Positions 3,340 through 22,745 of a stretch of DNA of 64,000 nucleotides are shown here, piece after piece (the first letter of the stretch is position 1; the number at the start of each line of letters is the position of its first letter). The position numbers and the translations under genes are program-made. Under the pieces are notes generated by a model. That model made no database searches. It worked only from the letters and a program-made list of their open reading frames with translations, and was not told the DNA's origin. Location: positions 32,001 to 96,000 of the forward strand of contig JBDTZG010000008.1 in the NCBI GenBank assembly GCA_040005235.1, given 5' to 3'. This stretch comes from Acidobacteriota bacterium (GTDB lineage: Bacteria > Acidobacteriota > Thermoanaerobaculia > Multivoradales > UBA5704).

Positions 3340-6300
3340 TCAGTTCGCACGGAATTCGCGCTGCCATCGCGAAGCGAGCGCCGCGCGAAGCGGCAGCGCG
3401 AGCGGCAGCAACATCCCGCCGAAAGGGAGCGCGGCGGTCGCCTGGAGGAACCCACCCGCGAGGCGTAGGGGAAGTGGGATCGAGCGGTCGAAGAGGTGCC
3501 CGGGGCGCCAGGGTCGCAGGAACCAGACCGCTCGAACGCGGTGGAGCGCGAGGTGCGCGAGGGGAGAAGCGAACGCCACGGCGACCAGAAGCACCGGGCC
3601 GGCACCGGGAGTCGTGAGAGGGCGGCCGAGCGGGATTAGGGCCGCGGCGAGGGCCAGGTAGAGGAAGAGCCAGCGGAAACGGCGGAGCCCCTCGGGTACG
3701 GGAGCGGATCCCAGGATCACCAGGAAACCGCCGACCGCAGCGAAGGCCAGCACCAAAGACAGGGTGATGACGAAGTCACGCATCCGGCCGGCGCCGGCGA
3801 TCGGGCCGAGGACGAGCCCGAACGCGGTCGCCGCCTGGGTGAGGAAGAGCGCGCGGGCCGCGCCGGGAAGGTCGTTCCGCTCCGTCACAGTGCCGCGTCC
3901 GAGCGCACGGGTCGCCCGCGCGGCGCCGAGGGCCGCGAGACCCGCGACGGCTCCACCGGCGGCCAGCGCCCAGAGGTCGAATCGACCCGCCGCGAGGAGG
4001 CGCAGCCCATCCCACTCGCGCAGGCGGAGGCCGGCTGCCAGCTCCAGGCGACCCGCAAGCCAGGAGACGAGGCCCGCGAGCGCGAGCGCATCGAACGCCG
4101 TAAGAAGGCACTTCCAGCGCAGGAACGAGAGCCTTCCCTTCTCAGCGCGGCTCTCGTGGGTCGGCGCGGAAGGTGAACGAGCGAGTGCCACTTCGAGCGG
4201 TTCATTGGTGTCCGAAGTCCGCCGCCCGTAGGCCGACCCAACGAGGGTCTCGCTTCGTCGCTCGGCGGGCAGGAAGATGCGCAGCACGACCGGCAAGATC
4301 GAAAACGGGGCCGGGAGGAGCACGAGCAGCGGAAAGAGGTCGCGCTCGCGGCGCGGGCCGGGCCGAGCCGGCTCGGTGGCGACTTTTTCAGCCAACTCTT
4401 GGCGCAAGAGGAGCGCCGCGCCGACATGCAGGGCGGCGAGCACTACGACCGCCACGGGGAACGGCGCCTGTACGGCGAGCCAGATCGAGAGCCCGATGAG
4501 CGGCAGCACCGAGAGCGCCGCGGCGACGGCGGGCACGCCGAGCCGCAGCCCCGAGTCGGAGCGCGGTGTTTGCCGCGCAGCGGCGCCGAGATCGAGCGGT
4601 GGGATCGCCGACATGCGACGCTCGACGAACCGGCGCCAGGCGGGGATCAGCACCAAGCCGAGGCCGGGGATCGCGGAAGCGATGCGGCGCGCGGCGATCC
4701 AGAGCCGAGGAAGCGTGCGCGGAAACGGCGTCTTGGCCTCGAGGTAGCCGTCGGCGATCCAGGCTTGGAGCGGCAAGAAGGCGAGCGAGGCGGCGCCGAG
4801 CAAGTTGGCGATCTGGGGCTCGATCGTGATCGGTGCGTAGCCGCGAGGCCAGAGCTGCGATTCGCCCACGAGACCGCCGACCAGGAGCAGCATCGAGCTG
4901 ACGAACGCCGAATCGCCGAGCTCGAAGTGACGCCAGGGGCCGCCGCCGCGCAGATCGATCCGCGCCCGGAAACGGCGTCGCGCGATCCGTTGGGCGCGCT
5001 CCTTCGTGCTCCCGGCCGATGGGGAAGCAACGTCGATCTCTCTCGGGAGTGCCTCGGCGCGGGCGCGCAGCAGGCGCCGGGCGAGGCGCGTCCTCCAACC
5101 GCGAGGCAGCAGCGCGAGGGCAGGAAGGGCCAGCCCGCCGAACGGCAGGGCGACCGCCGCGACCAGCGCCGCGATCGAGAGGCGGGTCGAGCGCGGCAGG
5201 TGCCGATCCGCCAGGTCGGCGAGGCGCACCGGTTTGAGGGCGTTGGAACCGAGGGTCGCGAGCAGCACCACGCGGGCGGCGAGCGCTTCAGGCAGCAGGG
5301 GAGGAAGGAGGTCCGACCGTGTCCTGGCGAGCAGAGCGATGCCGACCGCGAGCGCAAACCCGCCGATCATGCCGATCAAGAGCGTGCCGACTCTCAACCC
5401 ACCCCCTTCGGGATCGGGGAGGCGGAGGGTGTAGTCGAGTAGGGCGGTGAGCAGCAGGACCAGCGCTCCGAGCGCACCCGAGTAGACCGCGAGGGAAATC
5501 ATCGCGGGAACGGCGTGGCTCGCCCAAAGGGCTCCGCCTTCTAGACCGATGAGCGCGAGGCCCGGCGCCACCGAGAGCAGGATCGCACGCGGCAGGGCGC
5601 GGATCAGCGCTCCTCGCCGAGCCATCGGTCCCGCCTGGATGACGTCTTTCACCACGTACGCCGCCGCGACGGCCATCGAGAGGACGAGCCAGATTGCCAT
5701 CGCGAGGCGCGCCCCCTCGATCTCTCCGCTCTTGGCGAGCAGAGCGCCGACCGGCGCCGTCTCGAACGGCAGGAGCACCACGGCGATCCCGGTGTAGAGG
5801 TCGCGCCGCCGCTCGGCCCGGTTCGGTTCCAGCGGGATTGGAGCGGTGCGCCGCCGGTTCTGCCAGAGCGCGAAGACGAACGTCGTCTCCTCGCGCCCTT
5901 CCCGCGCGGCGAGCACCCAAGGCCCGAGGGCGGCGAGCGGCCAGGCGCCGGGCAAGAAGAAGGTGAACGGCAACGCCTGATGGAACGCGCGGCGGAGTCG
6001 GCTCGCTGGGAGGCTTGGAGCGTAGATCCAGGTGGAGACGAAGCCGGCGATCTGCAAGAGCACGTGCGCCGCCGTGGCGAACCGGGTGCCTGCAAGCCCC
6101 GCCGGGGGTGGTGCTGCGAGCGCTGCGAGCAGAGCGAGGAACGGCACGACCTGGCCAGCGACCGTCCAGGCGACGAGGAATCCCAAGTCAGTGCGCAGCC
6201 TCGCCAGCAGGCGGTCGAGGCGCACCAGCGGCGGTCCTCTGCGCGCTACCCCGAGATCGAGCCGCGGTATGCCTTCGTCGGTGTCGCGTCCGAGCCGGCG

Positions 6301-6681
6301 CCAGGCGGGCCAGGCGTGCAGGCCGACCACCGGCAGAGCGGCGAGGGCCGCCAGGAGCGCCCGCAAAACGACCGGCAACGCACGGGCACCTGGTGTACGT
6401 GCGGCGAGCGAGCGGTGCAAGACGATCGCGTTCGCAACGAGCAGCAGGGCGAGAACCGGCCGCCACGCGGGATCGAGGGCCAAGCGATCGACGGGAACGA
6501 ACGAGCTCTCCAGGCCCCCTCTCCTTTCTGCGAATCGCAGGAACAGCAGCCCGCCGAGGCAGGCGAGCCCGACCAGCCTGGCGAAATACGAATCGTCCCA
6601 GGCGTGCCAGCGGGAGGTGCCCTGGGCGGTCCACGGTCCAGCGTTGGGGGAGCGCCTCATGGCCAAGCTCATTGCGGTCAT
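3340..6681 (-). CDS. Large polytopic membrane protein with two-fold internal duplication, unknown function
   Basis: 1113 aa with many hydrophobic segments. The halves share PAWRR...IPxLDLG, ETxxxxxW/Y and ALPFGGxxLP. Start overlaps the upstream gene's stop at 6678-6681. Confidence 0.75.
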   Translation of the reverse strand: MTAMSLAMRRSPNAGPWTAQGTSRWHAWDDSYFARLVGLACLGGLLFLRFAERRGGLESSFVPVDRLALDPAWRPVLALLLVANAIVLHRSLAARTPGARALPVVLRALLAALAALPVVGLHAWPAWRRLGRDTDEGIPRLDLGVARRGPPLVRLDRLLARLRTDLGFLVAWTVAGQVVPFLALLAALAAPPPAGLAGTRFATAAHVLLQIAGFVSTWIYAPSLPASRLRRAFHQALPFTFFLPGAWPLAALGPWVLAAREGREETTFVFALWQNRRRTAPIPLEPNRAERRRDLYTGIAVVLLPFETAPVGALLAKSGEIEGARLAMAIWLVLSMAVAAAYVVKDVIQAGPMARRGALIRALPRAILLSVAPGLALIGLEGGALWASHAVPAMISLAVYSGALGALVLLLTALLDYTLRLPDPEGGGLRVGTLLIGMIGGFALAVGIALLARTRSDLLPPLLPEALAARVVLLATLGSNALKPVRLADLADRHLPRSTRLSIAALVAAVALPFGGLALPALALLPRGWRTRLARRLLRARAEALPREIDVASPSAGSTKERAQRIARRRFRARIDLRGGGPWRHFELGDSAFVSSMLLLVGGLVGESQLWPRGYAPITIEPQIANLLGAASLAFLPLQAWIADGYLEAKTPFPRTLPRLWIAARRIASAIPGLGLVLIPAWRRFVERRMSAIPPLDLGAAARQTPRSDSGLRLGVPAVAAALSVLPLIGLSIWLAVQAPFPVAVVVLAALHVGAALLLRQELAEKVATEPARPGPRRERDLFPLLVLLPAPFSILPVVLRIFLPAERRSETLVGSAYGRRTSDTNEPLEVALARSPSAPTHESRAEKGRLSFLRWKCLLTAFDALALAGLVSWLAGRLELAAGLRLREWDGLRLLAAGRFDLWALAAGGAVAGLAALGAARATRALGRGTVTERNDLPGAARALFLTQAATAFGLVLGPIAGAGRMRDFVITLSLVLAFAAVGGFLVILGSAPVPEGLRRFRWLFLYLALAAALIPLGRPLTTPGAGPVLLVAVAFASPLAHLALHRVRAVWFLRPWRPGHLFDRSIPLPLRLAGGFLQATAALPFGGMLLPLALPLRAALASRWQREFRAN

Positions 6682-9600
6682 GGCAGCGACGCCACGGCCG
6701 GGGCGGAAGGCAGGTGGAGCGCGCGGGCGAACGCTTCGCGCACGACCGGGATCTCGACGGCCGCCCTGGGATTCTCGTCGCCGAGCCGAGAGGGAAGATG
6801 GGCGTTGAGAAACCAGAGGAGCGCCACTACGGCAGCCGGCCGCTTACCCGTGCGGAACGCGTCGGCGAATCGGTGGGCGAGCGCCGGGCGGCTCACGGTC
6901 GAATCGGCGCGCCAGAGCCGGCGACGCAGCTCGGTGAGGCCTGGGTCGTCCGGTCGCGCGGCCCCTTCGCCGAGCCAAGCCCCCAAGGTTTCGAGCCACT
7001 CCGAATCGGCCGCGTCGAGGCTCGCCCACACCTGCGCTTCGGCTCGCGCCTCGCTCCCGGTGACCGCTTCGGCCAAGGCGTTCGGAAAGGCGCCGCCCTG
7101 CCACAGCCAACGCTCGCGAAGCAGGAGCCGGCAGGCGGCATCTCGTGGCTCGCCCGGCGGGCAGAGGCGGGCGAGGTCCACCGCGCGCTCCGGGCGGAGC
7201 GGCGCGAGGAGGATCAAGGTCGCCGGTTCGCCCAGAGCGTCGGTCGAGAGGGCGCGCTCGATCCATGAGGTCCGTTCGGCCGCGGTGGCCAGGCAGAGCT
7301 CGAGAATCTTCCGCTCGCGCTCGGAGCGCAATTCACCGAACCCGGATTCGAGCGCCTTGGGGAAGCCTCGCGGCGCCTCTCCCGGCAAGGTTCCAAGGCG
7401 CTCGACCGCGGCGGTGAGGATCGGTGCGAGCGTTGGCCATCCGGCGCGCAGCTCCTCTTTCGCCGGACAGACGCCGAGGCTCTCGGGCAGGAGCGCGAGG
7501 CTGGAAGCCACCCTTTCGTTCCTCCGGGTCCTGCCGCGCGCGTCGCTCCGAAGCGTCTCCGGCAGGTTCGCGAACAGGCGGGCGAGCGCGGCGCGACGAT
7601 CGGGCCAGGGCACCTCCGCCAGAGTGGCGAGCCGGCGCGCCGCCTCGTCGATCTCCAGGTCCGCCCGTGCAGGCTCGCCGGCCGAGCCCAGTGCCGCGAT
7701 CTCGGGTGTCGCGGCGGCGAGCGCGCGGTCCGAATCGAAGCGGAGCGCCGAGCGGAGCAGGCCGAGCGCCGTGCCGCGGTCGGCGGCCTCGCCATGGGCG
7801 GCCTGTTCGAACGCGATCGCGTGACGGGCGAGTGCGAGGAGCGCTGCCGCCCGACCGGGCCCCTGCAGGTCCATCAGATGCCGTGCCGCGATCTCCGGCG
7901 GGTCGAGCGGTAGCTCAGCGAGCGCCGCCAGCGTGCAGATTTCGCCGGTGAGCTCACCGTCTTCGGCGAGCGCTGCGTAGAGCGCCGCCGGCGCGAGGTC
8001 CTCGGTGGGGAACCGCTCGGGCGGCAGCGCGGCGATCCGTGCCAGAAGGAGTCGCCGACGGTCGACCATGCCGTCGCACACCGACCGGGCGCGCCCCATC
8101 CGTTCTTCCGCGTCCTGCGCCGTGGAAGCCCAGCGGCGGGCGAGTTGCTCGCGCAGCTCATCCTCTTCCTCCGGCAAGAGGAGCGGCGCGGCGAGCGCGA
8201 GGCCCCGGAGGTCGCCGCGGATCGCGCACAGGCGAACGGCGGTTTCGATCCTTATCTCCGCACGCAGGGCAAAGCCGGCTCCGGCGTGCGGTGCGACGGC
8301 CGAGGCGTAGGTTTCCGCCTGGGCGATCAACCGTTCGAGCAGCGGCTCGGCGGTGAGCGAGCGGGCGAAGTGCAGCAGATCGGCGGGTGTCCTGCCGGGG
8401 GCGAACGCCGCGCCGTCGAGCAGGCCCGCCGCGCGGCGCGGCAGATCGTTCGCCGCAAGGTCGAGGAAACGGCATACCGACTCGGGCGAGGCGAGGGCCG
8501 GCGCAAAACGACCGTCTTCGAGCCAGACGGCCACGGCCTCCAGCCGGCGCTTGCGCTCGGAGCAAGCCGGCCGCGCCGCAAGGGAGCGCAGCGCGGCGAG
8601 GAGGCGCTCCGGCGGCACTTCGAGCCGTTCGAAGGCGTCTTCCGCTGCGGCGATGCGCCGTTCGCTCGGCTCCACTTCAAGAGCCAGGGCCGTGAGCGCC
8701 GCCCGGGCACCTCGGGAGGGAGCCACGGAGGCCAGCCGGTCGATTTCGGCCGCCGGCAGGCAAGCGAGCAGATCGCGCGCCGAATCGACCCGCTCGGCGT
8801 CGGGAAAATCCGTCCCGTCCAGGCCGATCTCCTCACAGTGCGCGCGCGCCGAAGCGGCGTCTTGAACCGCACGGCCGGTGAGAAACTCGATCTCCAGCCG
8901 CCGCCCGGGTGCCTTCTCTCGGAGGAGCGACAGGATTGCACGCTCCTCGGAGCCGGAGATCTCGCCGAGCCGCCGTGCGAGGGCGGGCCGGTCGTCGTCC
9001 GCCGTTTTGGAGAACGCCCGCCAAAGCCCCTCGGCGGCCGGATCGCCCCGGTCGAGCCAGGCCTCGGCCAACTCGCGGCGGATCGCGCGAGAATCCTCGG
9101 CCGGCAGGCGCGCCAGCCAGGCGCTCCAACGCTCGCCGATCTCCGGGCCGGCACGGCGCGCGGCGCCGCGCAGGCGGCCGAGGGCCGCGGACCGGCCCGG
9201 ATCGCGCGGCGGCAGCTGGGTGCTCTCGACCGTCTCGCGCAGCACCGCGAGCGTGGGCTCGCGGAGGGTTTCGCTCGCCAGTCCCGACGCCACCGCGGCG
9301 AGCGCCTCGACCCGCTGCCAGGGATCGGGCAGCCGCTTGGAGGCATCGATTGCGAGATTCCCCCGGCCGCTCCGCGCGAGCGCCGCGAGCAGCTCCGGCT
9401 CCGCCAGGCCGTCGGCGAGGCCCGAGAGGTGGAGGGCGGTCGCGGCGAAGCGGAGGAAGCGAGGCCAATCGGCCGCCGTGATGGCGAGCGGCAGCGCGTG
9501 CTCCAGCAGGTCGAAGACGCTCGGCTCGAAGCCGCCGAACCGCTCCGCCTGGCGCGCTAGCTGGTCGGTCTCTTCGAGGAGCCGGAACAGCCGAGTGCGA

Positions 9601-9725
9601 TCGCCCGCCGCGGCGAGATGGGCGGCGAGATGGCGCAGCGAATAGTCGGCGCGGAAAGCTTCGAGGTCGGTCGTTTCGGCCTCGTCCGGGCTCTCGTCGG
9701 CCGATGGGGGTGGAGCGAGGCTCAT
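6678..9725 (-). CDS. Large alpha-helical (TPR/HEAT-like) protein beginning with a STAND post-winged-helix motif
   Basis: 1015 aa, Ala/Leu/Arg/Glu-rich. N-terminal DYSLRHLAAHLAAAGDRTRLFRLL. ATGA-type overlaps with both neighbours. Confidence 0.72.
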   Translation of the reverse strand: MSLAPPPSADESPDEAETTDLEAFRADYSLRHLAAHLAAAGDRTRLFRLLEETDQLARQAERFGGFEPSVFDLLEHALPLAITAADWPRFLRFAATALHLSGLADGLAEPELLAALARSGRGNLAIDASKRLPDPWQRVEALAAVASGLASETLREPTLAVLRETVESTQLPPRDPGRSAALGRLRGAARRAGPEIGERWSAWLARLPAEDSRAIRRELAEAWLDRGDPAAEGLWRAFSKTADDDRPALARRLGEISGSEERAILSLLREKAPGRRLEIEFLTGRAVQDAASARAHCEEIGLDGTDFPDAERVDSARDLLACLPAAEIDRLASVAPSRGARAALTALALEVEPSERRIAAAEDAFERLEVPPERLLAALRSLAARPACSERKRRLEAVAVWLEDGRFAPALASPESVCRFLDLAANDLPRRAAGLLDGAAFAPGRTPADLLHFARSLTAEPLLERLIAQAETYASAVAPHAGAGFALRAEIRIETAVRLCAIRGDLRGLALAAPLLLPEEEDELREQLARRWASTAQDAEERMGRARSVCDGMVDRRRLLLARIAALPPERFPTEDLAPAALYAALAEDGELTGEICTLAALAELPLDPPEIAARHLMDLQGPGRAAALLALARHAIAFEQAAHGEAADRGTALGLLRSALRFDSDRALAAATPEIAALGSAGEPARADLEIDEAARRLATLAEVPWPDRRAALARLFANLPETLRSDARGRTRRNERVASSLALLPESLGVCPAKEELRAGWPTLAPILTAAVERLGTLPGEAPRGFPKALESGFGELRSERERKILELCLATAAERTSWIERALSTDALGEPATLILLAPLRPERAVDLARLCPPGEPRDAACRLLLRERWLWQGGAFPNALAEAVTGSEARAEAQVWASLDAADSEWLETLGAWLGEGAARPDDPGLTELRRRLWRADSTVSRPALAHRFADAFRTGKRPAAVVALLWFLNAHLPSRLGDENPRAAVEIPVVREAFARALHLPSAPAVASLP

Positions 9726-12004
9726 CGGGCGCCGAAAAGAAACTCTGCGAACCGCTGGTTCATCTCGGCGAGGCGTACCCGCTCGTCCTCGATCTGGTCC
9801 TTGCCCGCGATGAAATCGTGGAAGCTCGCATGGTAGAGCCGGTAGCGCTTGCCCCCTTCCGGAGAGCGAACGACGGAAAGGAAGGGCGCCCAGTCATCGA
9901 GCACCCGCCGTACCCGGTGCCGGTCCGAGACCCCGGCGAGCGCGCCGATCCACTCGAACGGCAGCGGTTCACGCGCCGCGGAGAGCGCCGCGAGCACCGG
10001 CAGGCGCTCCCCGTACCAAGTGGCCTCGTCGGCGGTCTTCATTCGCCGCCAGAGGTTGTCGTAGTAGTTCGCGAGGCCCTGCGGCAGCTCGTCGAGCGAG
10101 CCCCCGCCTCTCGCCTCGGCGGCCTCGATCTCGGGCAGGACGTAGCGAAGGTACATGAAGTTTCCTTCGCTCTTCTCCGCAAGGTCGGCGACGAACCGCT
10201 CGATCGAAAGGCCGCGTCGCTCGCGATAGGCGGCGATTCCGGGGCGTTCTGCGGCGCGCTCCAGATACTCGGTCACGTCCGCCCGGTTTTCCAGCGAGGA
10301 CGCGACGATCTCATCGGTCTCGATCCGCTCGGCGCGGAGCGGAATCTCGCCGCGCCGGGCGGTGACCAGAGCGAACACGCCGGCCGGCAAAATCGGCGGC
10401 AGATAGAGCAGGTTGGATCCGCCGGACTGGGCGCCGGTGTCCGCCTCGTCGAGCGCGTCGACCAAAAAGAACGCCCGCTCGCCGGGAGCCAGACGGCCGG
10501 AAACCTGGTCCAGGATCGACATCAGGAACTGGCCGCTATCGCCGCCCTCGGGCGGAAGTGAGCGAGCGAGGCCATAGGCGGCGATCAGCTGGGTGCATAA
10601 CGAACGGAGAAACTGGCCCGGGGTCTGGTTACCGCTCTGACGCTGGTTGAAATATCGAGGGTAGCCTCTCGCCTGGGCGAGCTTCGCGACGACCGCCGTC
10701 TTGCCGATCCCCGGATCGCCCCGAAGGAGAAAATAGCCGCTCTCGGACTTTTCCGCGAACGCATCGATCCGGTCGAACAGCCAGCGACGCCCGGCGAAGT
10801 CGCGGGTCTTCTCGGCGATCAGGCCGCGAAAGTCGGAGAGCGCCTTGCGCGCCCCCGCCCCCGGTCCGGTTCCTACCCCCGCGAGCGGCTCGACGAGCGC
10901 CATGTCCCCCTGCCGGAGGAAGAGGACCGGCACCGCAAACTCGGCGCTCTTGGGTTTCGCCGTATGCACCGCGAGGCGGGCCTCGCCCATCGCGGCTTCG
11001 AGCGGCAGCCCCAACGCCAGCTGGGTATAGAGAGCATGGGTGAAGGCGATGGCGTTTGAATCGCGCACCGACATCTGCATCGCGATCACCGCCGGAACCC
11101 CCGCGAGCACCAGAGCGGCGCCGACGCTCTGAAACGCGTCGCGCTCAATGGCGGCGGCGACGCGCCCCCCTTCGCAGGCGGAGAGAACGACCAGGCGCAA
11201 CTCGTCGCAGTCCTGAAGATGGTCGGCGAGGACTCGCCCCGAGACCGTCACTGGCGCCCGGCGGTCGGAGGAAAAGATGAGCATCCCCTCGCCAGTCTGC
11301 TCGTCGAGCTTGCCATGGCCGATCCAGTGGAGCATATGGACGGCGTCTTCACCCCAGGTCCGAAGCTCCGCGCGCAGGCCGGCGGGCTCGGGATCGGCCA
11401 GAAAGGAAAGCGACAGGCCGGGCACCTTGGAGAGGACCTGTTCGATCGTCAGAAATTCGCCCGCCACGTCGAGCCTCGGCTCCATCTTGGCGTCGCTCCA
11501 GGCGGTCAGAAGCCGAAGCGGGGTGGCGAGCGGTGGGCGGACGCCCCTTGGGACGAAGATCCGCCGCACCACCGGAGTCTTGGCCCCGAGCGCAAGAAAC
11601 TGACGCCGCTCTCGCCGATAGAGCAGCTCCCAGGGAAGGGCCGCGAGCGGAGCCAGCTCCGGCCGTTCGAGATCGAACCCGAGCTCGATCCGCAGACCCG
11701 CCTCGGCATCCCCTTCGATCTTCTCAGCCGCCGCGGCGAAGCGCTCGCCGACCTTCCCCGCGAACAGCCCGTCGAAGAGCCGCGCACCGATCTCTTCCGC
11801 AGCCATCGGCTCCGGTGCTGCAGGCTCCTCGCCACGAGCGGAGCCGGGGGGAACCAGCGCCGCGAGCACCGAAGGCAGCTCGGCCGGCTCGAACGGCATC
11901 CGCAGCGTGCCTTCGGCATCCCCCACCAGGCGCGAGCGAAGGCGAACGGCGAAGTCTCCGCCGTTCACCGGCTCGAAAGTGAGCTGAAGCTCCTCATAGC
12001 GCAC
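9722..12004 (-). CDS. CHAT (caspase-like) protease fused to NACHT/STAND P-loop NTPase
   Basis: LPWELL motif. Catalytic HWIGHG and LSAC. Walker A GDPGIGKT and Walker B FFLVDALDE. SEGNFMYL, LPQGLANYY and YRLYHASFHDF. GTG start with GGGGAGG RBS. Confidence 0.88.
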   Translation of the reverse strand: MRYEELQLTFEPVNGGDFAVRLRSRLVGDAEGTLRMPFEPAELPSVLAALVPPGSARGEEPAAPEPMAAEEIGARLFDGLFAGKVGERFAAAAEKIEGDAEAGLRIELGFDLERPELAPLAALPWELLYRRERRQFLALGAKTPVVRRIFVPRGVRPPLATPLRLLTAWSDAKMEPRLDVAGEFLTIEQVLSKVPGLSLSFLADPEPAGLRAELRTWGEDAVHMLHWIGHGKLDEQTGEGMLIFSSDRRAPVTVSGRVLADHLQDCDELRLVVLSACEGGRVAAAIERDAFQSVGAALVLAGVPAVIAMQMSVRDSNAIAFTHALYTQLALGLPLEAAMGEARLAVHTAKPKSAEFAVPVLFLRQGDMALVEPLAGVGTGPGAGARKALSDFRGLIAEKTRDFAGRRWLFDRIDAFAEKSESGYFLLRGDPGIGKTAVVAKLAQARGYPRYFNQRQSGNQTPGQFLRSLCTQLIAAYGLARSLPPEGGDSGQFLMSILDQVSGRLAPGERAFFLVDALDEADTGAQSGGSNLLYLPPILPAGVFALVTARRGEIPLRAERIETDEIVASSLENRADVTEYLERAAERPGIAAYRERRGLSIERFVADLAEKSEGNFMYLRYVLPEIEAAEARGGGSLDELPQGLANYYDNLWRRMKTADEATWYGERLPVLAALSAAREPLPFEWIGALAGVSDRHRVRRVLDDWAPFLSVVRSPEGGKRYRLYHASFHDFIAGKDQIEDERVRLAEMNQRFAEFLFGAR

Positions 12005-12204
12005 CGGGCACCTCCCCTCGCTTTGGTGTCGCGCGATTACCGCTCGGGCTTGCGCGAATAGTAATCCTGCGGGCCGGTTCGTTGGGGCGATCGATTCTGG
12101 TATTGAACGCGAGAAATTGCAGAACCGCGGCTCTTATCGGAACAGATCTTGCAGCTCCTTCTCAACCACGCTCGCTTGGAACGTGGTCGAAAGAGGAGTC
12201 CTGC

Positions 12205-13374
12205 ATGACGAAGATTTTCCTGTTGAACCGTCTGTGCGGCCTGGGTTTCGTGGCCGCGCTTGGCCTTTTGGGCATGGCCTTGCCGGCCACGGCCCAGACT
12301 TGCGATGGCTCGGGGGATGGCACCTGGAACGGCTGTCGCGGCACGGGTTGCCATGTCTGCTCGGAAAAGGTTTCCGCCTATGGCTGCTACTTTCTCAACC
12401 ACCCGTCCTGCATTCAGAACACCACGTGCGCCGGCCAGTTCTTCGATTGCGACGCGGGTTGCCCGCCGCCCACGGAAGCCGATCTCTGCGGCGCGACCAG
12501 CAAAGATGGCGACACTTTGTCCGACGTGCTGGAAGACCAGCTGGTTTGGCGCTTTGCCCCGGTCGTCCGCCTGCATCCGAGCGATTCGTACCGGCCGAGC
12601 AGCGCGGACTGGTACATGGCGCGGACCCAGATGAGGTTCGATCATTCCGGTTGCTCGGATGATCAGATTCTCAACAAAGGGCAGGTCACGACCAACAACA
12701 TCGACCTGCAGGCGCACCAGAACAAGAACGGCTGGCCGAGCTGCAGCCACAACAGCTCGGTGCAGTACTCCGACATGAGGACGTCCAACAGTCGGTTCTT
12801 CCTACAGATCCCGAACGACTCCGCCGAGCTGACCACCCGCCTCGGGGCTTCCTCGACCGACTGGACCTGCTATGCGCACGTGCGCTTCGCGCCGGGTTCG
12901 ACTACCCAGTACGACATTCAGTATTGGTTCTTCTTTCCCTACAACGGCGCTCTCGCGGTGGGCCAGGGCGGTCACGAGGGGGACTGGGAGCACATCACCG
13001 TCCGCGTCCAGAGCGACGGGACGACGCTCTCCCAGGTCTACTTCTCGGCGCATGACAACGAGGGGCAGTGGTACCTGCCCGGGCAGATCTCTTACACCAC
13101 CGACGGCCGGCCGGTCGCCTATTCGGCGATCAACAGCCACGCGAGCTACCCTTCGGCGGGCACCTGGAGCCGCGGCATCTTGCCGGCCGACCAAACCGCC
13201 GACGGCGGTCCGGCCTGGGACTGCCGCCGTAGCGTCTGGAACGTCGGCGAGGGCGGATTGCCGCTCAACAAAGGTCGCTACTGGCTGAATTACAGCGGAC
13301 GCTGGGGCGAGATCGGCGAGATCTTCAGCGGCCCGTGGGGCCCCGCATACCAGGCGTACTGGACCGTAAACTAG
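12205..13374 (+). CDS. Secreted protein with Cys-rich N-terminal module and Vps62/DUF946-like domain
   Basis: AGAGGAG RBS. Signal peptide. Cys-rich stretch. Motifs FAPVVRLHP, IQYWFFFPYN, HEGDWEHITV, YFSAH, NSHASY and YSGRWG. Confidence 0.75.
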   Translation: MTKIFLLNRLCGLGFVAALGLLGMALPATAQTCDGSGDGTWNGCRGTGCHVCSEKVSAYGCYFLNHPSCIQNTTCAGQFFDCDAGCPPPTEADLCGATSKDGDTLSDVLEDQLVWRFAPVVRLHPSDSYRPSSADWYMARTQMRFDHSGCSDDQILNKGQVTTNNIDLQAHQNKNGWPSCSHNSSVQYSDMRTSNSRFFLQIPNDSAELTTRLGASSTDWTCYAHVRFAPGSTTQYDIQYWFFFPYNGALAVGQGGHEGDWEHITVRVQSDGTTLSQVYFSAHDNEGQWYLPGQISYTTDGRPVAYSAINSHASYPSAGTWSRGILPADQTADGGPAWDCRRSVWNVGEGGLPLNKGRYWLNYSGRWGEIGEIFSGPWGPAYQAYWTVN

Positions 13375-13890: not shown

Positions 13891-15537
13891 TCACGGCTTG
13901 CCGCAAAGCCGGCTGAGAAAATCGCCGGGCCGCTGTCCTAAGGGCGAATCCCCGATCAGAACCGAGTAGCTCGGCGGAAAGAACGTCACCTCGCCGGTGA
14001 CGCCCGCGCGCGCCGCCTGGGCTTTCACCTCATCGGGCCAATAGGCGAGGAGGGCGAAGCGCTGGGGGACCTGGCGGAGTCCTTCGCCGTAATGGTAGAG
14101 ATCGGCGTGGGTGTCGCAGGGCACGCCCCGAATCCACTCTTGCGAGGCGAAGTTGAGGGGATAGACCAGCCAATAGTCGCCGGCCACGAGGGTCACCCCT
14201 TGCCGACGGAGCAGGCCGAGCACCTGCCACTCTCCGGAAGCCGCGGCGTGCAGACGCTGGCGCATTAGGGTATTCGGCCAGAAATAGACGCTCGCCGAGT
14301 AGAGGGCCACGAGCGCCGCGAGCACGCCGGCCAGGACCGGACCCCAGGTGCGGCGCCAGGTGCTCAATGCGGCGAGGAAGATTCCCAAGGCGAGCGGTGC
14401 GAGAAGGTAGATCGGCAGCACGTAGCGCACGGTGAGGCCGCGGCTCCCTCCGGCTGCGGAAAGGACGTTGATCGCGACGGTGGCACCGATCAACAGCAGG
14501 GCGAGCACGCGCCGGTGTGGGTTGGCCTCGGTGTTCTTTTTCTTGGCCGGAATGGCGCCGGCTTCGGAAATTGCGCTCCGGTCGCCCCAGATGAAGAAGA
14601 AGGCGAAGGCCAGGAAGTAGACCGCGGCGGCGGGGAAGCGGAGCGCGCGGGTGAGGGGACCGGGAGGGCTAGGGCCCCCCTCCGGATCGGTCGACACGAA
14701 CAGCTCGGGCAGCTTGTAGGTGGAGAGGAAGTCGAGGTTGTCGATCACGCTCGCCCGATCGAGCGCCGGCCGGGCGACCGAGTTGGCGCCGTTGAACGAG
14801 GCGAGCGGATGCACGACGTTGTAGCCGATCCAGGGGGAGGCGCCGACCAGAAACCCCGCGAGCGCGAGCAGGCCGATCCGGGCGAGACGCAGAAGGCTCG
14901 ATCGTAAGGTCTCGGACCCGGGCCGTCGGAAGTGCAAGCGGAGGACCAGCCAGGCGATCACCGGCAAGGTCACGCAGAGGGTCTGGAGTGATGCCCACCA
15001 GGAGAGCCCGACGACTCCGCCGAATGCGAGCCAGAGGCCGCGCCGTTCCGGCTCGTCGGCCACCCACGCGGCGAGCCAGAGGGTGGCCGCTGCGAGCGCG
15101 AGCGTCACCGAATAGCCGTTCGGCTGATCCGTCCAGTAGAGGAACGCGGGGGAGGGGAGCGCCGCCGCGACCAGCCCCCATCGCGCGGCGGCAGGCCCGG
15201 CGAGACGGCGCACGAACAGCCAGGAAAAGAGCATTCCGAGCGAGCTGGCGAGCCAGGGCGCGTAGCCCATCGCCTGGCGCGTCGGACCGAGGATCAGAAA
15301 TGCGAGCGCGTGAAGGTACGACTCGATCGCGCCGATCCGGACGCCGTTGTAAAACACCTGAAGATCGCCGGCCAGGATGCGCAGCGCGCACAGACCGGTC
15401 TGGATGCAGTCCGCATCGGCCTGGAACTTGGTGACCGGAAAGATGATGACGAACCGCAAGGCGACCCCCGCAGCGAACAGCGCCGCGGTCGCGAGTCCGG
15501 CGATTGTGATCGAGTGGGAGAGCGACGGCCGCTTCAT
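13891..15537 (-). CDS. GT-C superfamily (PMT/ArnT-like) membrane glycosyltransferase
   Basis: Polytopic membrane protein with an acidic FQADAD motif after TM1. RYVLP and DYW motifs near the C-terminus. Confidence 0.65.
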   Translation of the reverse strand: MKRPSLSHSITIAGLATAALFAAGVALRFVIIFPVTKFQADADCIQTGLCALRILAGDLQVFYNGVRIGAIESYLHALAFLILGPTRQAMGYAPWLASSLGMLFSWLFVRRLAGPAAARWGLVAAALPSPAFLYWTDQPNGYSVTLALAAATLWLAAWVADEPERRGLWLAFGGVVGLSWWASLQTLCVTLPVIAWLVLRLHFRRPGSETLRSSLLRLARIGLLALAGFLVGASPWIGYNVVHPLASFNGANSVARPALDRASVIDNLDFLSTYKLPELFVSTDPEGGPSPPGPLTRALRFPAAAVYFLAFAFFFIWGDRSAISEAGAIPAKKKNTEANPHRRVLALLLIGATVAINVLSAAGGSRGLTVRYVLPIYLLAPLALGIFLAALSTWRRTWGPVLAGVLAALVALYSASVYFWPNTLMRQRLHAAASGEWQVLGLLRRQGVTLVAGDYWLVYPLNFASQEWIRGVPCDTHADLYHYGEGLRQVPQRFALLAYWPDEVKAQAARAGVTGEVTFFPPSYSVLIGDSPLGQRPGDFLSRLCGKP

Positions 15538-15562
15538 GCCGGCTTTGCGGCCTTCACGCAAT

Positions 15563-16816: not shown

Positions 16817-17875
16817 ATGAGCGACCCGTTGTTCTGGCACCGAGTGCAATTCGGTTTCACGATCGCCTATCACTACCTGTTTCCGCAGCTCACGATGGGG
16901 CTCGCCCTGCTGATCGTGGTGCTGAAGATCCAGGCGGTGCGGACGGGTGCGGCGCGCTATGCCGACGCGGCGCGGTTTTGGGTGCGGGTCTTCGGCCTCA
17001 ATTTCGCGATGGGGGTGGTGACCGGTCTGCCGATGGAGTTTCAATTCGGTACCAACTGGGCGCGCTTTTCGCATTTTGCCGGTGGCGTGATCGGCCAAAC
17101 GCTCGCGATGGAGGGGATCTTCGCGTTCTTCTTGGAATCGAGCGTCCTTGCCCTGCTGGTGTTCGGCGAGCGACGGCTCGGGCCAAAACGCCATCTTGCG
17201 GCGGCCGTCGCGCTGTTCGTCGGCAGCTGGCTCTCCGGCTACTTCATCGTGACGACCAATGCCTTTATGCAGAACCCGGTGGGGTATTCGACCGCTCCTG
17301 ACGGCACGCTCCAGATCGCGGACCTCGCGGCTTTCTTGGGCAACCCCTGGGCGCTCGCGCAATACGCCCACACCATGATGGCTGCCTTGGTGACCGCCTC
17401 TTTCGTGATGGCCGCGGTGGGGGCGTTCTGGCTCCTCCAAGGAAAACACCAAGACGCCGCCCGCGTGTCGCTACGAACCGGAGTGGTCACCGGCCTGTTC
17501 TCTTCGCTCCTGGTCGCGATGCCCACCGGTCACCTCCAAGGGCAACTGGCGGCGACCCACCAGAAGGTGGCGCTCGCGGCGATGGAAGGGCGATTCGAAA
17601 GCGGCCCGATGGCGCCGATCGCGATGATCGGCCAGCCGAACGTCGCGGAGCGCCGGCTGGACAACCCGATCGCGATCCCGGGCGTGCTCTCCTATATCGC
17701 CTACGGCGACTTCTCGAAAAACGTCCGAGGGCTGAACGAATTCCCCGAGGATCTCTGGCCCACCAACGTCGAGCTGCTCTATTACGCGTTCCACATCATG
17801 GTGGGCCTGATCGCGCGCGAGGTCGGCCATGGGCCGCGTTCGCTCGAACGTTCCGGCGTTCCCGTCGTTATATAA
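16817..17875 (+). pseudogene. cydA: Cytochrome bd oxidase subunit I with in-frame internal deletion (GRQPW region missing)
   Basis: YHYLFP, MEFQFGTNW, EGIFAFFLES, NAFMQNP, KVALAAMEG and FHIMVGL are present. The protein then jumps to the C-terminal REVGHGP. Only 352 aa. Confidence 0.75.
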
Positions 17876-17891
17876 GGGCCTGGCGACGACG

Positions 17892-18938
17892 ATGAACGCG
17901 CTCTGGTACGCCTTCGCCTCGGTGCTATTGGCCGGCTATGTGATCCTCGACGGTTTTGATTTCGGCGCCGGAGCGCTCCATCTGTTTGTGGCGAAGACCG
18001 ACCGCCAACGCCGCGAGGTGCTCGCCGCGATCGGCCCGTTCTGGGACGGCAACGAGGTCTGGCTGCTCGCCGCGGGCGGCCTCCTGTTCCTCGCTTTCCC
18101 CAAAGTACTCGGCGCGGGCCTTTCGGGCCTTTACCTGCCGGTCTTCTTCCTGCTCTGGGCGCTGATCCTGCGCGGCATCGCCATGGAATTCCGGTCGCAC
18201 GTCGAGGATGCGATGTGGCGCGGCCTTTGGGACATCGTCTTTTCGCTCGCGAGCGCGCTGCCGCCGGTCCTCCTTGGAGCGGCGCTCGGCAACCTCCTGC
18301 GGGGGGTGCCGCTCGACGGCACGGGCTATTTCGCCCTGCCGCTCTGGACCGATTTCACCGCTCGGGCGCCGTACGGCGTGCTCGACGGTTACACGACTCT
18401 GGCGGGTGTCCTGGCGCTCGTGGCGCTCGCCCATCACGGCGCGCTGTTTCTCGCCTGGAAGACGGAAGGCGAGGTTCACGAACGATGCCAAAACGCGGCG
18501 GCGCGGCTGTTCGTGCCGCTCGTCGCGCTCTGGCTCGCCGCCACCTGGGCCACCTATGCGCTCCGCCCCGATCTGTTCGAAAACCTGGCGGACCGGCCGC
18601 TGGCGCTCGTCGCCGCGCTGCTCGGCGTCGCGGGGATCATCGGTGCGCTTCTAAGTCGCCGCCGCGGGCAGCCCTTGCTCGCATTCGTCGGATCTTCGGC
18701 GTTCCTGCTCGGCATTCTCGTCGCGACCGTCACCTCGTCCTACCCGGTGATGATCCGCTCGACCCTCGATCCCAGCTTCTCGCTCACCGCCTTGAACGCC
18801 GCTTCGAGCGCGGAGAGCCTGAAGACCGGGCTCCTCTGGTGGCCGTTCGGATTTGCCCTCGCGCTCGCCTATCTGGCGCTGCTGCTTCATATCCACCGGG
18901 GAAAGGTCCGCTCGCCCGCCGAAGGGGAAGGGTACTGA
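17892..18938 (+). CDS. cydB: Cytochrome bd oxidase subunit II
   Basis: YVILDGFDFGAG, IGPFWDGNEVWL and LRGIAMEFR. Follows cydA. Confidence 0.93.
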   Translation: MNALWYAFASVLLAGYVILDGFDFGAGALHLFVAKTDRQRREVLAAIGPFWDGNEVWLLAAGGLLFLAFPKVLGAGLSGLYLPVFFLLWALILRGIAMEFRSHVEDAMWRGLWDIVFSLASALPPVLLGAALGNLLRGVPLDGTGYFALPLWTDFTARAPYGVLDGYTTLAGVLALVALAHHGALFLAWKTEGEVHERCQNAAARLFVPLVALWLAATWATYALRPDLFENLADRPLALVAALLGVAGIIGALLSRRRGQPLLAFVGSSAFLLGILVATVTSSYPVMIRSTLDPSFSLTALNAASSAESLKTGLLWWPFGFALALAYLALLLHIHRGKVRSPAEGEGY

Positions 18939-20000: not shown

Positions 20001-21371
20001 GTGTATTTTCCCCGGCATATCGATACGACGCTGAGGTCCTGGGCGGCTGAAAACGACCGCAAGCCGCTCGTGCTTCGCGGAGCGCGGCAAACCGGCAAGA
20101 CCGCCGCAGTTCGGCGCCTCGGCGAGCATTTCGACCTCTTTCTTGAGCTGAATCTGGAGCGTTTCGAGGATCTGTCGCTGGTGCGCTCCTGCCGCTCGGC
20201 CGAAGAGCTTTTGACCGCGCTTGCCGCCCGGCACAACCTGGAGCGCTTTCCGCCGCGGACGCTGCTGTTACTCGACGAGATTCAGGATAGCCCCGAGGCG
20301 GTCGGCTGGCTGCGCTTCTTATACGAGGACCATCCCGAGCTGTTTGTCGTGGCGGCCGGCTCGCTTCTCGAAGTCCGGCTTCAGGAGCGGGGGTTTTCGT
20401 TTCCGGTCGGCCGGGTCACGTTTCGCGTGCTGCGGCCGTTCACCTATTTCGAGTTTCTCGCGGCAAACGGGCGAGAGGTGCTCGCGGGCCATCTGGCCGC
20501 CTCGGTGTCCGAAGGGAGACCGATCGGCCCCGCGCTCCACGAGCAGGCGCTCGATCTGCTTCGGGACTACCTTCTGGTCGGCGGTATGCCCGAGGCGGTG
20601 GCGCGTTGGGTAGCCGAGCGTAACCCGGTCGCCGTCCGCGGCGTTCATCGCGATCTCGTCCAAGCGCTCGCCGAAGACCTTCAACGCTTCGGCAACCTGC
20701 GCGAGGCGGGCTACCTCGAAGCCGCGTTCGAGAATCTTCGCCACCACGTCGGCTTGCGATTCCGGTACGAGAATTTCGCTCCGGGGTACAAGAGCCAACT
20801 GATGAAGGACGCCCTCGCAAAGCTCGAGGCGGCGCTCCTAATCCATCGGGTCATCCCCACCAGTTCTTTGGCTCTTCCCTTGCGCGAGCGAACCCGTTCG
20901 GCGGCGAAGCTGCTGCCGTTGGACGTGGGTCTCGCGCTCTACACCTTCGGCTCGGGTTTCGAAACGGCTCGCGCTCTGCCGCTTTCCCAGATTCTGGACG
21001 GGCGAGCGGCAGAGATCTTCGTCGGCCAGCAGTTGCTCGCCGCGGCTCCGGGATTTCCCGGCGATCTTTTCTTTTGGGTGAGCGAGTCGGCGAGCAGCAA
21101 CGCCGAGGTCGACTATCTCGTGCCTATCGCTGGCCGGCCGGTGCCGGTGGAAGTCAAATCGACGGCGGCGGGCGCGCTCAAATCGCTGCATCAATTTCTC
21201 TCGCGAGCGGGCCTTTCGACCGGCGTTCGGCTGCACACCGGCTTGCCGGCCGACGAGCGCCTTCTAGTCCGCATGCCGGAGGGGCATTTGTCGTATCGGC
21301 TCCTTTCGCTGCCCGTCTACCTCGCCGAAAAGGTTCCACTTTTCAAGTTCAATGAAACGGAGTCCGGTTAG
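20001..21371 (+). CDS. AAA_14 ATPase with DUF4143 / PD-(D/E)XK-like C-terminus
   Basis: LRGARQTGKT, LLLDEIQ, AAGSLL, GGMPE and EVDYL...PVEVKS. Confidence 0.88.
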   Translation: MYFPRHIDTTLRSWAAENDRKPLVLRGARQTGKTAAVRRLGEHFDLFLELNLERFEDLSLVRSCRSAEELLTALAARHNLERFPPRTLLLLDEIQDSPEAVGWLRFLYEDHPELFVVAAGSLLEVRLQERGFSFPVGRVTFRVLRPFTYFEFLAANGREVLAGHLAASVSEGRPIGPALHEQALDLLRDYLLVGGMPEAVARWVAERNPVAVRGVHRDLVQALAEDLQRFGNLREAGYLEAAFENLRHHVGLRFRYENFAPGYKSQLMKDALAKLEAALLIHRVIPTSSLALPLRERTRSAAKLLPLDVGLALYTFGSGFETARALPLSQILDGRAAEIFVGQQLLAAAPGFPGDLFFWVSESASSNAEVDYLVPIAGRPVPVEVKSTAAGALKSLHQFLSRAGLSTGVRLHTGLPADERLLVRMPEGHLSYRLLSLPVYLAEKVPLFKFNETESG

Positions 21372-21500
21372 AGGCCGAGACACGCACCTTGCCTCCGGCG
21401 CGCGGAGGTGAAACCTTTCCCCCCTTCGATTCGTTCAGAGGAAGCAATTCTGCCGAGTGGCGCTAGCTTGCGCCCGACGGCAACCGGGGAGGTTGGGCCG

Positions 21501-22633
21501 ATGCGCGCGCTCCGTTCGTTGATTCTGATCTTGGCGGTGCCGGTTCTGTTGGGAGGTACCCTTGGCGCGGCCGAGCCTGCTTCCGCGGTTCCTGCGACTC
21601 CTGGGGACAGCGCTCCGGCGGCGGTTGCCGCGCCGTCGGCGTCGGAGTCGGCCGCCGCGGATTTCGACGTGGAAGCCGCCACCCGGGTCTATCTTTCGCG
21701 GGTCTCGCCCGCCGACAAGGAGCGTTCCGACTCCTATTTCGAAGGGGGCTACTGGCTCCAGCTTTGGAGCTTCCTGTACGGCCTGGGGGTATCCTGGCTC
21801 TTGCTCTCGCGGGGAATCTCCAGCCGCTTGCGCGACGCGGTGGAGCGGGCAGTTGGCAATCGAGCGATCCAGACGTTCCTCTACGCGGCGGCTTATTTCA
21901 TCGCTGCGGCGGTCCTTACGCTGCCGCTCACGATCTACTCCGATTACTGGCGCGAGCACTCCTACGGCCTCTCGAATATGACTTTCGGCGGGTGGTTCCG
22001 CGATGCCGCAGTCGGCCTGGGCGTTTCGGTGATCCTCGGTGGCCTGTTCATGGTTCTTCTCTACTGGGTCTTCCGCAAGGCGCCGCGCTCTTGGTGGATC
22101 TGGGGAACCGCGGTCTCCCTGGTCGGCCTGGTCGTCATGGCGTTGATCAGCCCGGTTTACATCGCGCCGCTGTTCAACGAGTACAAGCCACTCGGCGAGG
22201 GGCCGATCAAGGCTGAAATCTTGTCGCTCGCGCGGGCAAACGGAATCCCTGCCGACAACGTCTACGAGTTCGATGCGAGCAAGCAATCGAAGCGGGTGAG
22301 CGCGAACGTCAGCGGCCTTGGCTCGACGCTCCGGATTTCGCTCAACGACAACCTGCTCGCGCGGGTGAAACCCGAGGGCATCCAGGCCGTTATGGGGCAC
22401 GAGATGGGCATTACGTGCTCAACCACATCTATGAATTCATTCCGATATTCGCACTCATCATCCTGGTCGGCTTCGGGTTCCTGCGCTGGAGCTTCTATGG
22501 GGTCCTGTACCGCTACGGCGCTCGCTGGGGCGTGCGGGGGATCTTCTTCGACCACCCGAGCGGCCGGAGCCGCATCCTGATGGCGATGCGTTGGAAGAAG
22601 GAGCACTTGAAGGATCTGCCGGCGGTGCCGTAG
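21501..22633 (+). pseudogene. M48 (Ste24-like) metallopeptidase, frameshifted in HEXXH and internally deleted
   Basis: PLFNEY, DASKQS and SANVSG precede HEMG. After a 1-nt shift near 22408 the other frame reads HYVLNH...DHPSGRSRI. The ExxAD segment is absent. Confidence 0.8.
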
Positions 22634-22745
22634 TAAGGGGGCGCGCCGAATCGCTGACAGGGGCGGGAAGTCGCCCCGTCGACGGCCGGAGTGTCGCGGT
22701 AAAAAGTCGGTGAATGGGGCCCGATTCGAATACCATCCGCCGTCC

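Follow-up and report, generated by a model that had tools for sequence, protein, structure and literature searches.

In the window, a 64,000-nucleotide (nt) stretch of the genome of a soil bacterium of the Acidobacteriota, three consecutive minus-strand genes encode a predicted CHAT protease fused to a NACHT-type STAND NTPase (gene 1), an all-alpha solenoid (gene 2) and a polytopic membrane protein (gene 3). The reading favoured here, at slightly better than even probability, is that the three products form one membrane-tethered, split NLR-like machine, and this machine probably functions as a conflict or defence system. The evidence comes from gene junctions, from a gene order that recurs in related loci, from in-frame fusions of neighbouring genes and from a modelled contact between the products of genes 1 and 2. 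The genome that carries the window (contig C83:32001-96000) comprises 6.2 Mb in 140 contigs and is rated 100% complete. Positions below are those of the window.

9722..12004, minus strand: gene 1, 760 amino acids (aa) from a GTG start; CHAT protease fused to a NACHT-type STAND NTPase
6678..9725, minus strand: gene 2, 1015 aa; all-alpha solenoid without a transmembrane segment, unnamed family
3340..6681, minus strand: gene 3, 1113 aa; polytopic membrane protein, two tandem copies of one module

A first-pass annotation, made from the DNA letters alone, had described three minus-strand genes with 4-nt overlaps, and this layout is upheld, both junctions being ATGA, with one caveat about the start of gene 3. 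A public record places that start at residue 8 of the present reading, seven codons later, a choice that would turn the 4-nt overlap between genes 2 and 3 into a short gap. By open reading frame (ORF) coordinates, the 4-nt overlap of the gene 1/gene 2 junction is also seen in three of the related loci described below (L008, L011 and L019).

9722..9725, minus strand: ATGA overlap of the gene 1 stop (TGA) and the gene 2 start (ATG)
6678..6681, minus strand: ATGA overlap of the gene 2 stop and the gene 3 start, if gene 3 begins at its first ATG
12011..12017, minus strand: Shine-Dalgarno-like GGGGAGG ahead of the gene 1 GTG start

No internal terminator stands out in the operon: the scan finds one terminator-like site, within gene 1, below the 5.8 expected from shuffles. 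The promoter scan of the operon returned no promoter-like site. The G+C content (GC) of the operon is 71.4%, against 66.6% in the rest of the window, and horizontal transfer was considered on this ground and rejected. At third codon positions (GC3) the composition is uniform, at 0.82-0.84 in the operon genes and 0.85-0.88 in their neighbours, so the raised GC is attributed to proteins rich in Ala, Arg and Leu.

Conserved order, fusions and exchangeable head modules

A word-indexed search of 5.8 billion clusters returned nine relatives of gene 2 and one non-self relative of gene 3, and an exhaustive profile search with alignment A1 enlarged the gene 2 family to 179 cluster representatives at E <= 1e-3, 169 of them at E <= 1e-10. 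Scans of genome and metagenome contigs, mapped by profile hidden Markov models (HMMs) for four modules, gave 19 loci; L013 and L019 are the same locus at 99.985% identity, leaving 18 independent ones. All nine loci from named genome records belong to Acidobacteriota (three Holophagales, four Thermoanaerobaculia/Thermoanaerobaculaceae and two unclassified). The order CHAT-NACHT, solenoid, membrane module, membrane module is found in the window and in L008, L011, L012, L014, L017, L019 and L024; L010 and L018 show the same beginning of the unit before their contigs end, and L022 has the unit with a single membrane module. Of the 16 loci that extend 2.4 kb or more upstream, 10 have a gene 1 orthologue directly upstream of the solenoid gene, and the other six (L015, L016, L020, L021, L023 and L026) give no NACHT match. 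A membrane module adjoins the solenoid gene in every locus with flanking DNA, 17 of 17, or 16 of 16 with L013/L019 counted once, and tandem solenoid-membrane arrays occur in L015, L020 and L023.

The three genes do, therefore, co-occur across genomes, as the first-pass annotation's proposal of a joint system implied, in the same order in 10 of 16 loci at 25-49% protein identity. The 10 loci span different orders of Acidobacteriota, and identities in this range place the conservation of order well beyond close kinship. The recurrence at such divergence also indicates that the three genes are real rather than chance ORFs of GC-rich DNA. Mean pairwise identity among the eight canonical loci is 49% for NACHT, 41% for CHAT, 41% for the solenoid and 30-31% for the membrane modules, which are the fastest-evolving part of the unit. 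The family is rare and patchy in its distribution: the solenoid is absent from all 400 evenly sampled genomes of other Acidobacteriota, and the genome that carries the window has a single copy. The public names of 10 key relatives are 'hypothetical protein' or none, except for P0026, a 'serine/threonine protein kinase'.

Fusions link the genes in both directions. The membrane-module HMM matches the same chain in 35 of the 150 listed solenoid representatives, mostly at full length (E 1e-10 to 6e-78), with the module C-terminal to the solenoid in 26 chains and N-terminal to it in nine, and the DNA of L020 shows fused solenoid-membrane ORFs of 1548 and 1595 aa. Gene 3 is thus probably coupled physically to gene 2 and not to gene 1. 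On the other side, CHAT, NACHT and solenoid form a single chain in P0040 (1591 aa) and P0161 (1606 aa); in P0040, the C-terminus of gene 1, a linker of ~25 residues and the N-terminus of gene 2 follow one another in frame. In more distant long NACHT relatives, the NTPase is followed by WD40 or TPR repeats, and kinase or TIR heads are often present.

The N-terminal partners of the solenoid vary. A Pfam scan covered the 20 of 150 listed representatives that have N-terminal or otherwise unexplained extensions, and identified one CHAT-STAND head (P0040) and four of TIR type: TIR in P0092 and P0094, SEFIR/TIR in P0127, and SEFIR/TIR with a protein kinase in P0026. The remaining 15 gave no Pfam family, most of their extensions being membrane modules. 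In L021, a C25-like peptidase lies directly upstream of the solenoid. These architectures suggest that the solenoid and membrane module form a constant core, for which CHAT-NACHT is one of several interchangeable partners along with TIR, SEFIR/TIR-kinase and the C25-like peptidase. As a separate observation, the solenoid gene of L016 (8495-10021) has an N-terminal extension of ~509 aa without Pfam or PADLOC match, possibly another head module, and is broken into four frames in a way that suggests indel errors of a long-read assembly.

The three proteins and a predicted contact

Profile matches and motifs identify gene 1 as a CHAT protease joined to a NACHT-type STAND NTPase, with its motifs intact. 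The Pfam CHAT family (PF12770) covers residues 119-351 (E 2e-23, 83.6 bits against a cut-off of 24), and the NTPase core is matched by AAA_16 (36.8 bits, cut-off 32.6), NPHP3_N (30.5, cut-off 24.8) and NACHT itself (27.4, marginally above the cut-off of 26.7). The alignment of gene 1 with seven syntenic orthologues and the fused relative P0040 shows H230 (GHG) and C277 (SAC/NAC) to be invariant in nine of nine sequences; in the CHAT family, residues at these two positions are taken to be the catalytic His-Cys dyad. Equally invariant are Walker A G429-K435 and Walker B D516, E520 and D522 (GDPGIGKT and LVDALDEAD), and the pattern of acidic residues after Walker B is presumably the NACHT-specific one. 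The first-pass annotation had called gene 1 a CHAT-NACHT STAND protein on the strength of four motifs (HWIGHG, LSAC, GDPGIGKT and LVDALDE); all four are in the translation, and the call is confirmed by the family matches and the invariant residues.

10952..11650, minus strand: CHAT (caspase-fold) domain, residues 119-351, Pfam PF12770
11315-11317, minus strand: codon of the putative catalytic His230 of the CHAT domain
11174-11176, minus strand: codon of the putative catalytic Cys277 of the CHAT domain
10307..10798, minus strand: P-loop NTPase core of the STAND module, residues 403-566 (Pfam AAA_16, NPHP3_N, NACHT)
10697-10720, minus strand: Walker A, GDPGIGKT
10445-10465, minus strand: Walker B, LVDALDE

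By sequence, 8tl0 (E 5e-16) and 8rot (E 2e-9), both CHAT proteins, are the closest solved relatives of the CHAT domain. As to the helical lid and winged-helix module that follow the core in STAND NTPases, a match to AAA_lid_TANC1 falls under the cut-off in gene 1 (E 0.006-0.022) and passes it in the L019 orthologue (30.2 against 29.1). The chain ends after a putative winged-helix region, with no C-terminal repeat or sensor arm of its own. The genome holds seven CHAT matches in all; the six others (L002-L007) are on contigs C122, C23, C11, C8, C1 and C7 in open frames of 566-1109 aa, and the C122 protein aligns with gene 1 residues 7-445.

Gene 2 matches no Pfam or NCBIfam family, and PADLOC gives one meaningless match (E 0.022). 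It lacks any hydrophobic segment, and its AlphaFold2 (AF2) model is an all-helical solenoid with a mean predicted local distance difference test (pLDDT) score of 79. Foldseek finds generic solenoids for it (SKI3, karyopherins, FANCI/D2) at template modelling (TM) scores of 0.13-0.20, which say nothing of function, and a profile search of PDB sequences gave nothing below E 0.5. An APAF1_C assignment (Atlas score 0.85, 29% of one cluster) was considered and found unsupported, with no Pfam family at E <= 10 over residues 1-250. In one sub-family of the solenoid, ~115-130 residues are deleted at profile positions ~775-890; it comprises L010, L011, L013/L019, L014, L022, P0040 and P0161, and so takes in both single-chain CHAT-NACHT-solenoid fusions. 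Gene 2 occupies the place of the classical STAND sensor arm because it is fused at that place in P0040 and P0161, where distant relatives carry WD40 or TPR repeats. The first-pass annotation had named gene 2 the sensor: in terms of position that role holds, but gene 2 is more aptly seen as a C-terminal arm detached from its STAND protein than as an independent sensor.

The first-pass annotation had also suggested modelling genes 1 and 2 as a complex. When gene 1 residues 381-760 and gene 2 residues 1-450 were modelled together, the score was 0.69, against 0.00 for the best of three controls, a mark that is reached by 58 of 80 solved complexes and by two of 110 mismatched pairs, as a rough guide only, own alignments having been used. 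At least 58% of contacts are shared between the runs, and the partner's pLDDT is at least 79. The modelled interface brings gene 1 residues 676-684, 714-718 and 745-760 against gene 2 residues 20-45, so that the chain ends in contact are exactly the two that are continuous in P0040. The model supports binding between the two proteins, short of demonstrating it.

9725..9772, minus strand: C-terminal helix of gene 1, residues 745-760, predicted by the complex model to dock on gene 2
9591..9668, minus strand: first long helix of gene 2, residues 20-45, predicted docking site for gene 1

These results bear on one alternative, in which common descent alone keeps the three genes side by side and gene 1 works independently of genes 2 and 3. 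Gene 1 is missing in the six loci without a NACHT match, and CHAT proteins are numerous in these genomes, with seven matches in the present one, as expected under such independence. An arrangement of this kind is nevertheless very improbable given the order kept in 10 loci of different orders at 25-49% identity, the ATGA overlaps at the junctions, the in-frame fusions P0040 and P0161 and a complex model that passes while its controls score 0.00.

Gene 3 matches no family in Pfam (gasdermin included), NCBIfam or PADLOC, and Atlas gives no usable match. It has 20-25 hydrophobic segments, and comparison of its two halves gives E 1.5e-6 under composition correction (37 bits, whereas 100 shuffles never exceeded 23.5) and E 4e-20 when the correction is omitted. 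In L011, L014 and L024, the halves are separate genes of ~560-600 aa. Gene 3 is, on this comparison, a tandem duplication of a polytopic membrane module of ~560 aa. The AF2 model of module 2 is all helical (pLDDT 68.7). Fold searches with the membrane module stayed at noise level: the best Foldseek match has E 0.13 (MFS transporters, TM score ~0.13), and the best VIA-align match, a UbiA homologue with Z 6.9 over 108 residues, lies under the helical-bundle noise level of the tool. Failed matches of models such as these need not mean that the fold is new. Judged by hydropathy alone, the longest loop is at most 68 aa, every loop of 38 aa or more is rich in Arg and Lys, and there is no sign of a large periplasmic domain. 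Both ends of the membrane module are expected to face the cytoplasm, since a cytoplasmic solenoid joins either end.

5038..6660, minus strand: membrane module 1, residues 8-548, from the profile HMM of alignment A2
3349..5019, minus strand: membrane module 2, residues 555-1111, from the profile HMM; AF2 model all helical

The main rival to the membrane-tethered machine arises here. The membrane protein, alone or with the solenoid, would be a latent death effector, kept inactive until the CHAT protease, activated through NACHT, cuts it or its tether; once freed, it would permeabilise the membrane in the manner of gasdermin, Pepco or EACC1 modules. Precedent is provided by bacterial gasdermin operons, in which, according to the available text (10.1101/2021.06.07.447441), CHAT or caspase-like proteases, some of them fused to NACHT or repeat domains, cleave adjacent pore-formers, and the same cleavage logic appears in the accessible portion of a report on Pepco and EACC1 modules (PMC12642450). 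Further points in its favour are the rapid evolution of the membrane modules, the long Arg-rich, low-confidence loops of gene 3, which could hold a cleavage site, and the fact that the locus encodes no other candidate substrate: across the eight canonical loci, no conserved same-strand ORF of 30-150 aa is found within 500 nt upstream of gene 1, and the intergenic gaps are too short for a small pro-toxin gene. Known cleaved effectors, in contrast, are small soluble pro-proteins rather than chains of 1100 aa with 20-plus transmembrane segments, and gene 3 matches neither gasdermin nor another Pfam family. The solenoid-membrane pair also occurs with TIR or SEFIR/TIR-kinase, and L016 and L026 have no protease in the locus. 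Partners other than a protease, or none, mean that proteolytic release cannot be the general mode of activation of the pair, and a latent effector is considered rather unlikely. The first-pass annotation had left gene 3 as substrate, effector or receptor. With interchangeable heads, anchor or sensor is a more general role for it than substrate, which is still conceivable, because CHAT-NACHT is only one of several partners.

Candidate mechanism and genomic context

In the favoured mechanism, gene 3, with its two multi-pass modules of ~560 aa, would sit in the cytoplasmic membrane and hold the gene 2 solenoid on its cytoplasmic face. The putative winged-helix region and the C-terminal helix of gene 1 would dock on the first helix of gene 2, and the assembled trio would thereby rebuild the STAND layout of CHAT effector, NACHT switch and solenoid repeat arm, with a membrane module in addition. 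A signal at the solenoid-membrane pair, possibly a foreign protein or a membrane change caused by infection or damage, would release the NACHT switch, and NTP-dependent oligomerisation would bring the CHAT domains together. The activated protease may then cleave proteins of the cell or of the system itself, leading to cell arrest or death.

Several observations weigh against this mechanism. The alignments behind the complex model are small, with 8-9 rows, and the score may partly reflect likeness to, or memory of, solved NLR structures, because the pair amounts to the split halves of a STAND protein. Fusions of genes 1 and 2 are found in only two of the 120 long NACHT relatives listed, and P0040 is the sole such fusion among the 150 listed solenoid representatives. 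The six of 16 loci without NACHT indicate that the solenoid-membrane pair can work without gene 1. A sensor role for gene 2 is suggested by its position rather than by any known ligand, and the fold of gene 3 is explained by neither fold search. The loops of gene 3, at most 68 aa long and all Arg/Lys-rich from 38 aa upwards, would leave little surface outside the cell, so that it could equally be a latent effector. Lastly, the window contains no obvious defence island, its only match to a defence candidate, PDC-S01, lying 8 kb away.

A more specific version of the mechanism, held only tentatively, is that of a bacterial 'transmembrane NLR', in which a membrane receptor complex made of the new multi-pass module and the solenoid reads an event at the envelope and drives interchangeable immune outputs. 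Candidates for this event are the adsorption of a phage or the injection of its genome, damage to the membrane, and contact with another cell; the outputs would be the NACHT-gated caspase here and TIR or SEFIR/TIR-kinase in relatives, and the tandem solenoid-membrane arrays would represent a diversified receptor repertoire. If correct, this arrangement would join the receptor-at-membrane logic of Toll and IL-17 receptors and NLR logic in one prokaryotic system.

The neighbours in the window are a PhoH-PIN protein, a LOG-like protein, a Vps62-domain protein, a PMT_2-like glycosyltransferase, a methyltransferase and a cytochrome bd oxidase. Such housekeeping genes are among the grounds for a non-immune alternative, in which the membrane complex would control regulated proteolysis in a membrane-stress, developmental or cell-cell recognition pathway. 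HetF, the best NCBIfam match of gene 1, is a CHAT protease that acts in cyanobacterial differentiation or cell division, and points the same way. The HetF match, however, reaches 40.6 bits against a cut-off of 1200 and covers the CHAT core only. Enrichment of STAND-caspase systems in multicellular and social bacteria, as stated in the text available from Kaur et al. 2020 (PMC7159879), would also fit a physiological role. The patchy spread (0 of 400 genomes), the paralogue arrays and the swapped TIR, kinase and protease heads are, on the other hand, typical of conflict systems, as are the Septu-like, ThsB-like and GAP1/DO-GTPase neighbours described below, and not of conserved physiology; a non-immune signalling function is thus judged distinctly unlikely.

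Around related units, GAP1-N2 and DO-GTPase2 lie directly upstream in L012 and L024, and DO-GTPase2 is upstream in L020, so that one or both adjoin three of the 18 independent loci; the genome that carries the window has no GAP1-N2. TPR-CHAT and CHAT-FGE proteins are found near the units of L021 and L014. In L022 (14870-19335), directly downstream of the gene 1-2-3 unit, one protein joins a second CHAT-NACHT module of the same clade (NACHT HMM E 1e-175) to a Septu-like PtuA ATPase (PADLOC E 7e-51), and a PtuB-like gene (E 3e-30) comes next. This pair looks like a Septu variant with a caspase-NLR head. In L015, a 611-aa protein combining CHAT with a ThsB-like TIR (20826-22661; PADLOC E 7e-34) is encoded downstream of the NACHT-less solenoid-membrane array.

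Some features of the window itself stand apart from the system. The plus-strand gene at 20001-21371 encodes an AAA_14/DUF4143 ATPase that is a full-length PADLOC match to the phage-defence candidate PDC-S01 (E 2e-123). The gene divergent from gene 1, at 12082-13374 on the plus strand, encodes 430 aa with a hydrophobic segment at the N-terminus, a stretch rich in Cys and a Vps62 domain (Pfam E 2e-24); it was not found beside the system in the other loci. A PMT_2-like membrane glycosyltransferase is located upstream of the system both in the window (13891-15561, minus strand, with one gene between) and in L008 (5914-7668, directly). Two plus-strand genes may be damaged. The M48-type peptidase ORF at 21408-22580 matches Peptidase_M48 only over profile positions 4-74 of 186 before a low-complexity Ser/Ala/Gly-rich tail, and is probably frameshifted or broken, and cytochrome bd subunit I at 16817-18938 covers profile positions 1-323 of 418, its ORF end overlapping subunit II, which may reflect truncation or a frameshift.

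Comparison with known systems

Bacterial STAND/NLR-like proteins are viewed as ancestors and analogues of the innate immune receptors of animals and plants, and those studied are, to our knowledge, nearly all soluble single-chain proteins that act as cytoplasmic sensors of phage proteins. The locus defines two unnamed families, a solenoid of ~1000 aa with 179 cluster representatives and a multi-pass membrane module of ~560 aa, and the pair that they form appears to accept CHAT-NACHT, TIR or SEFIR/TIR-kinase as its head. Should this pair be the sensor, it would offer a way to study an NLR-type switch driven from the membrane; should the membrane protein be the effector, it would represent a novel type of membrane killer under protease or NTPase control. 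In both cases, the system is testable with three genes and two point mutants.

The first-pass annotation did not recognise the arrangement as a named system, and the searches agree: no library match names it, and no description of it was found in full-text literature, figures and supplements not being covered. The nearest labels apply in part. Avs1b reaches 22.4 bits in NCBIfam, against a cut-off of 1500, and 28.7 bits in PADLOC as a partial match only; the PADLOC SAVED_CHAT profile matches only over its CHAT part (positions 102-276 of 498), and Pfam detects no SAVED family in gene 1. Likewise, Pfam finds no gasdermin or other pore-former family in genes 2 and 3 or in the window neighbours. 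Because the defining features of Avs1b, HetF, SAVED-CHAT and gasdermin systems were looked for and are absent, gene 1 is not regarded as a member of any of these.

Bacterial gasdermin operons, as far as the available text describes them (Johnson et al., 10.1101/2021.06.07.447441), share with the present locus a caspase-fold protease and an NLR-type module beside a membrane-acting partner, with regulated cell death as the presumed outcome in both. The partner here, unlike theirs, is an integral membrane protein of 1113 aa, separated from the protease by a solenoid of 1015 aa, and the solenoid-membrane pair also occurs protease-free. Single-chain STAND proteins, including Avs, bNACHT and the Apaf-1-like caspase-STAND-propeller proteins, follow the same logic of effector, NTPase and repeat sensor in the accessible text of the two sources consulted (PMC13581612, 10.1101/2022.07.19.500537). 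In most members of the present system, by contrast, the arm has a gene of its own, represents a new solenoid family and is linked to a multi-pass membrane module.

The text of PMC12642450, as available, describes Cys and Ser proteases joined to STAND sensors, some of them membrane-associated, with 'transmembrane STAND ATPases' sensing for Pepco modules, and these systems carry a small adjacent pro-toxin (Pepco, EACC1, MBL or alpha/beta-hydrolase). CHAT-FGE proteins of a kind listed there are those found near L014 and L021, whereas the conserved small pro-toxin gene that the described modules have is absent beside gene 1. The present system may overlap with those transmembrane STANDs, the comparison being one of text without figures. 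The GAP1-N2/DO-GTPase systems of Kaur, Burroughs, Iyer and Aravind 2020 (PMC7159879), presented in the text consulted as membrane-proximal, NTP-dependent conflict systems, share a constant core with swappable effectors (caspase, TIR, FGS/FGE), often near a membrane, and their GAP1-N2 and/or DO-GTPase2 components are those directly upstream of the unit in L012, L024 and L020. The terms 'multi-TM' and 'Acidobacteria' do not occur in the main text of that paper, to which this statement is limited, source-data files being outside its scope. The core also differs from that described there, consisting of a solenoid and a membrane module and not of a GTPase-GAP1 or MoxR-vWA pair. By analogy, the STAND/NLR immune-sensor logic with a caspase-like effector would be the part already known; the parts that set this locus apart are the two unnamed families, the conserved split into separate, translationally coupled genes and the obligatory membrane module.

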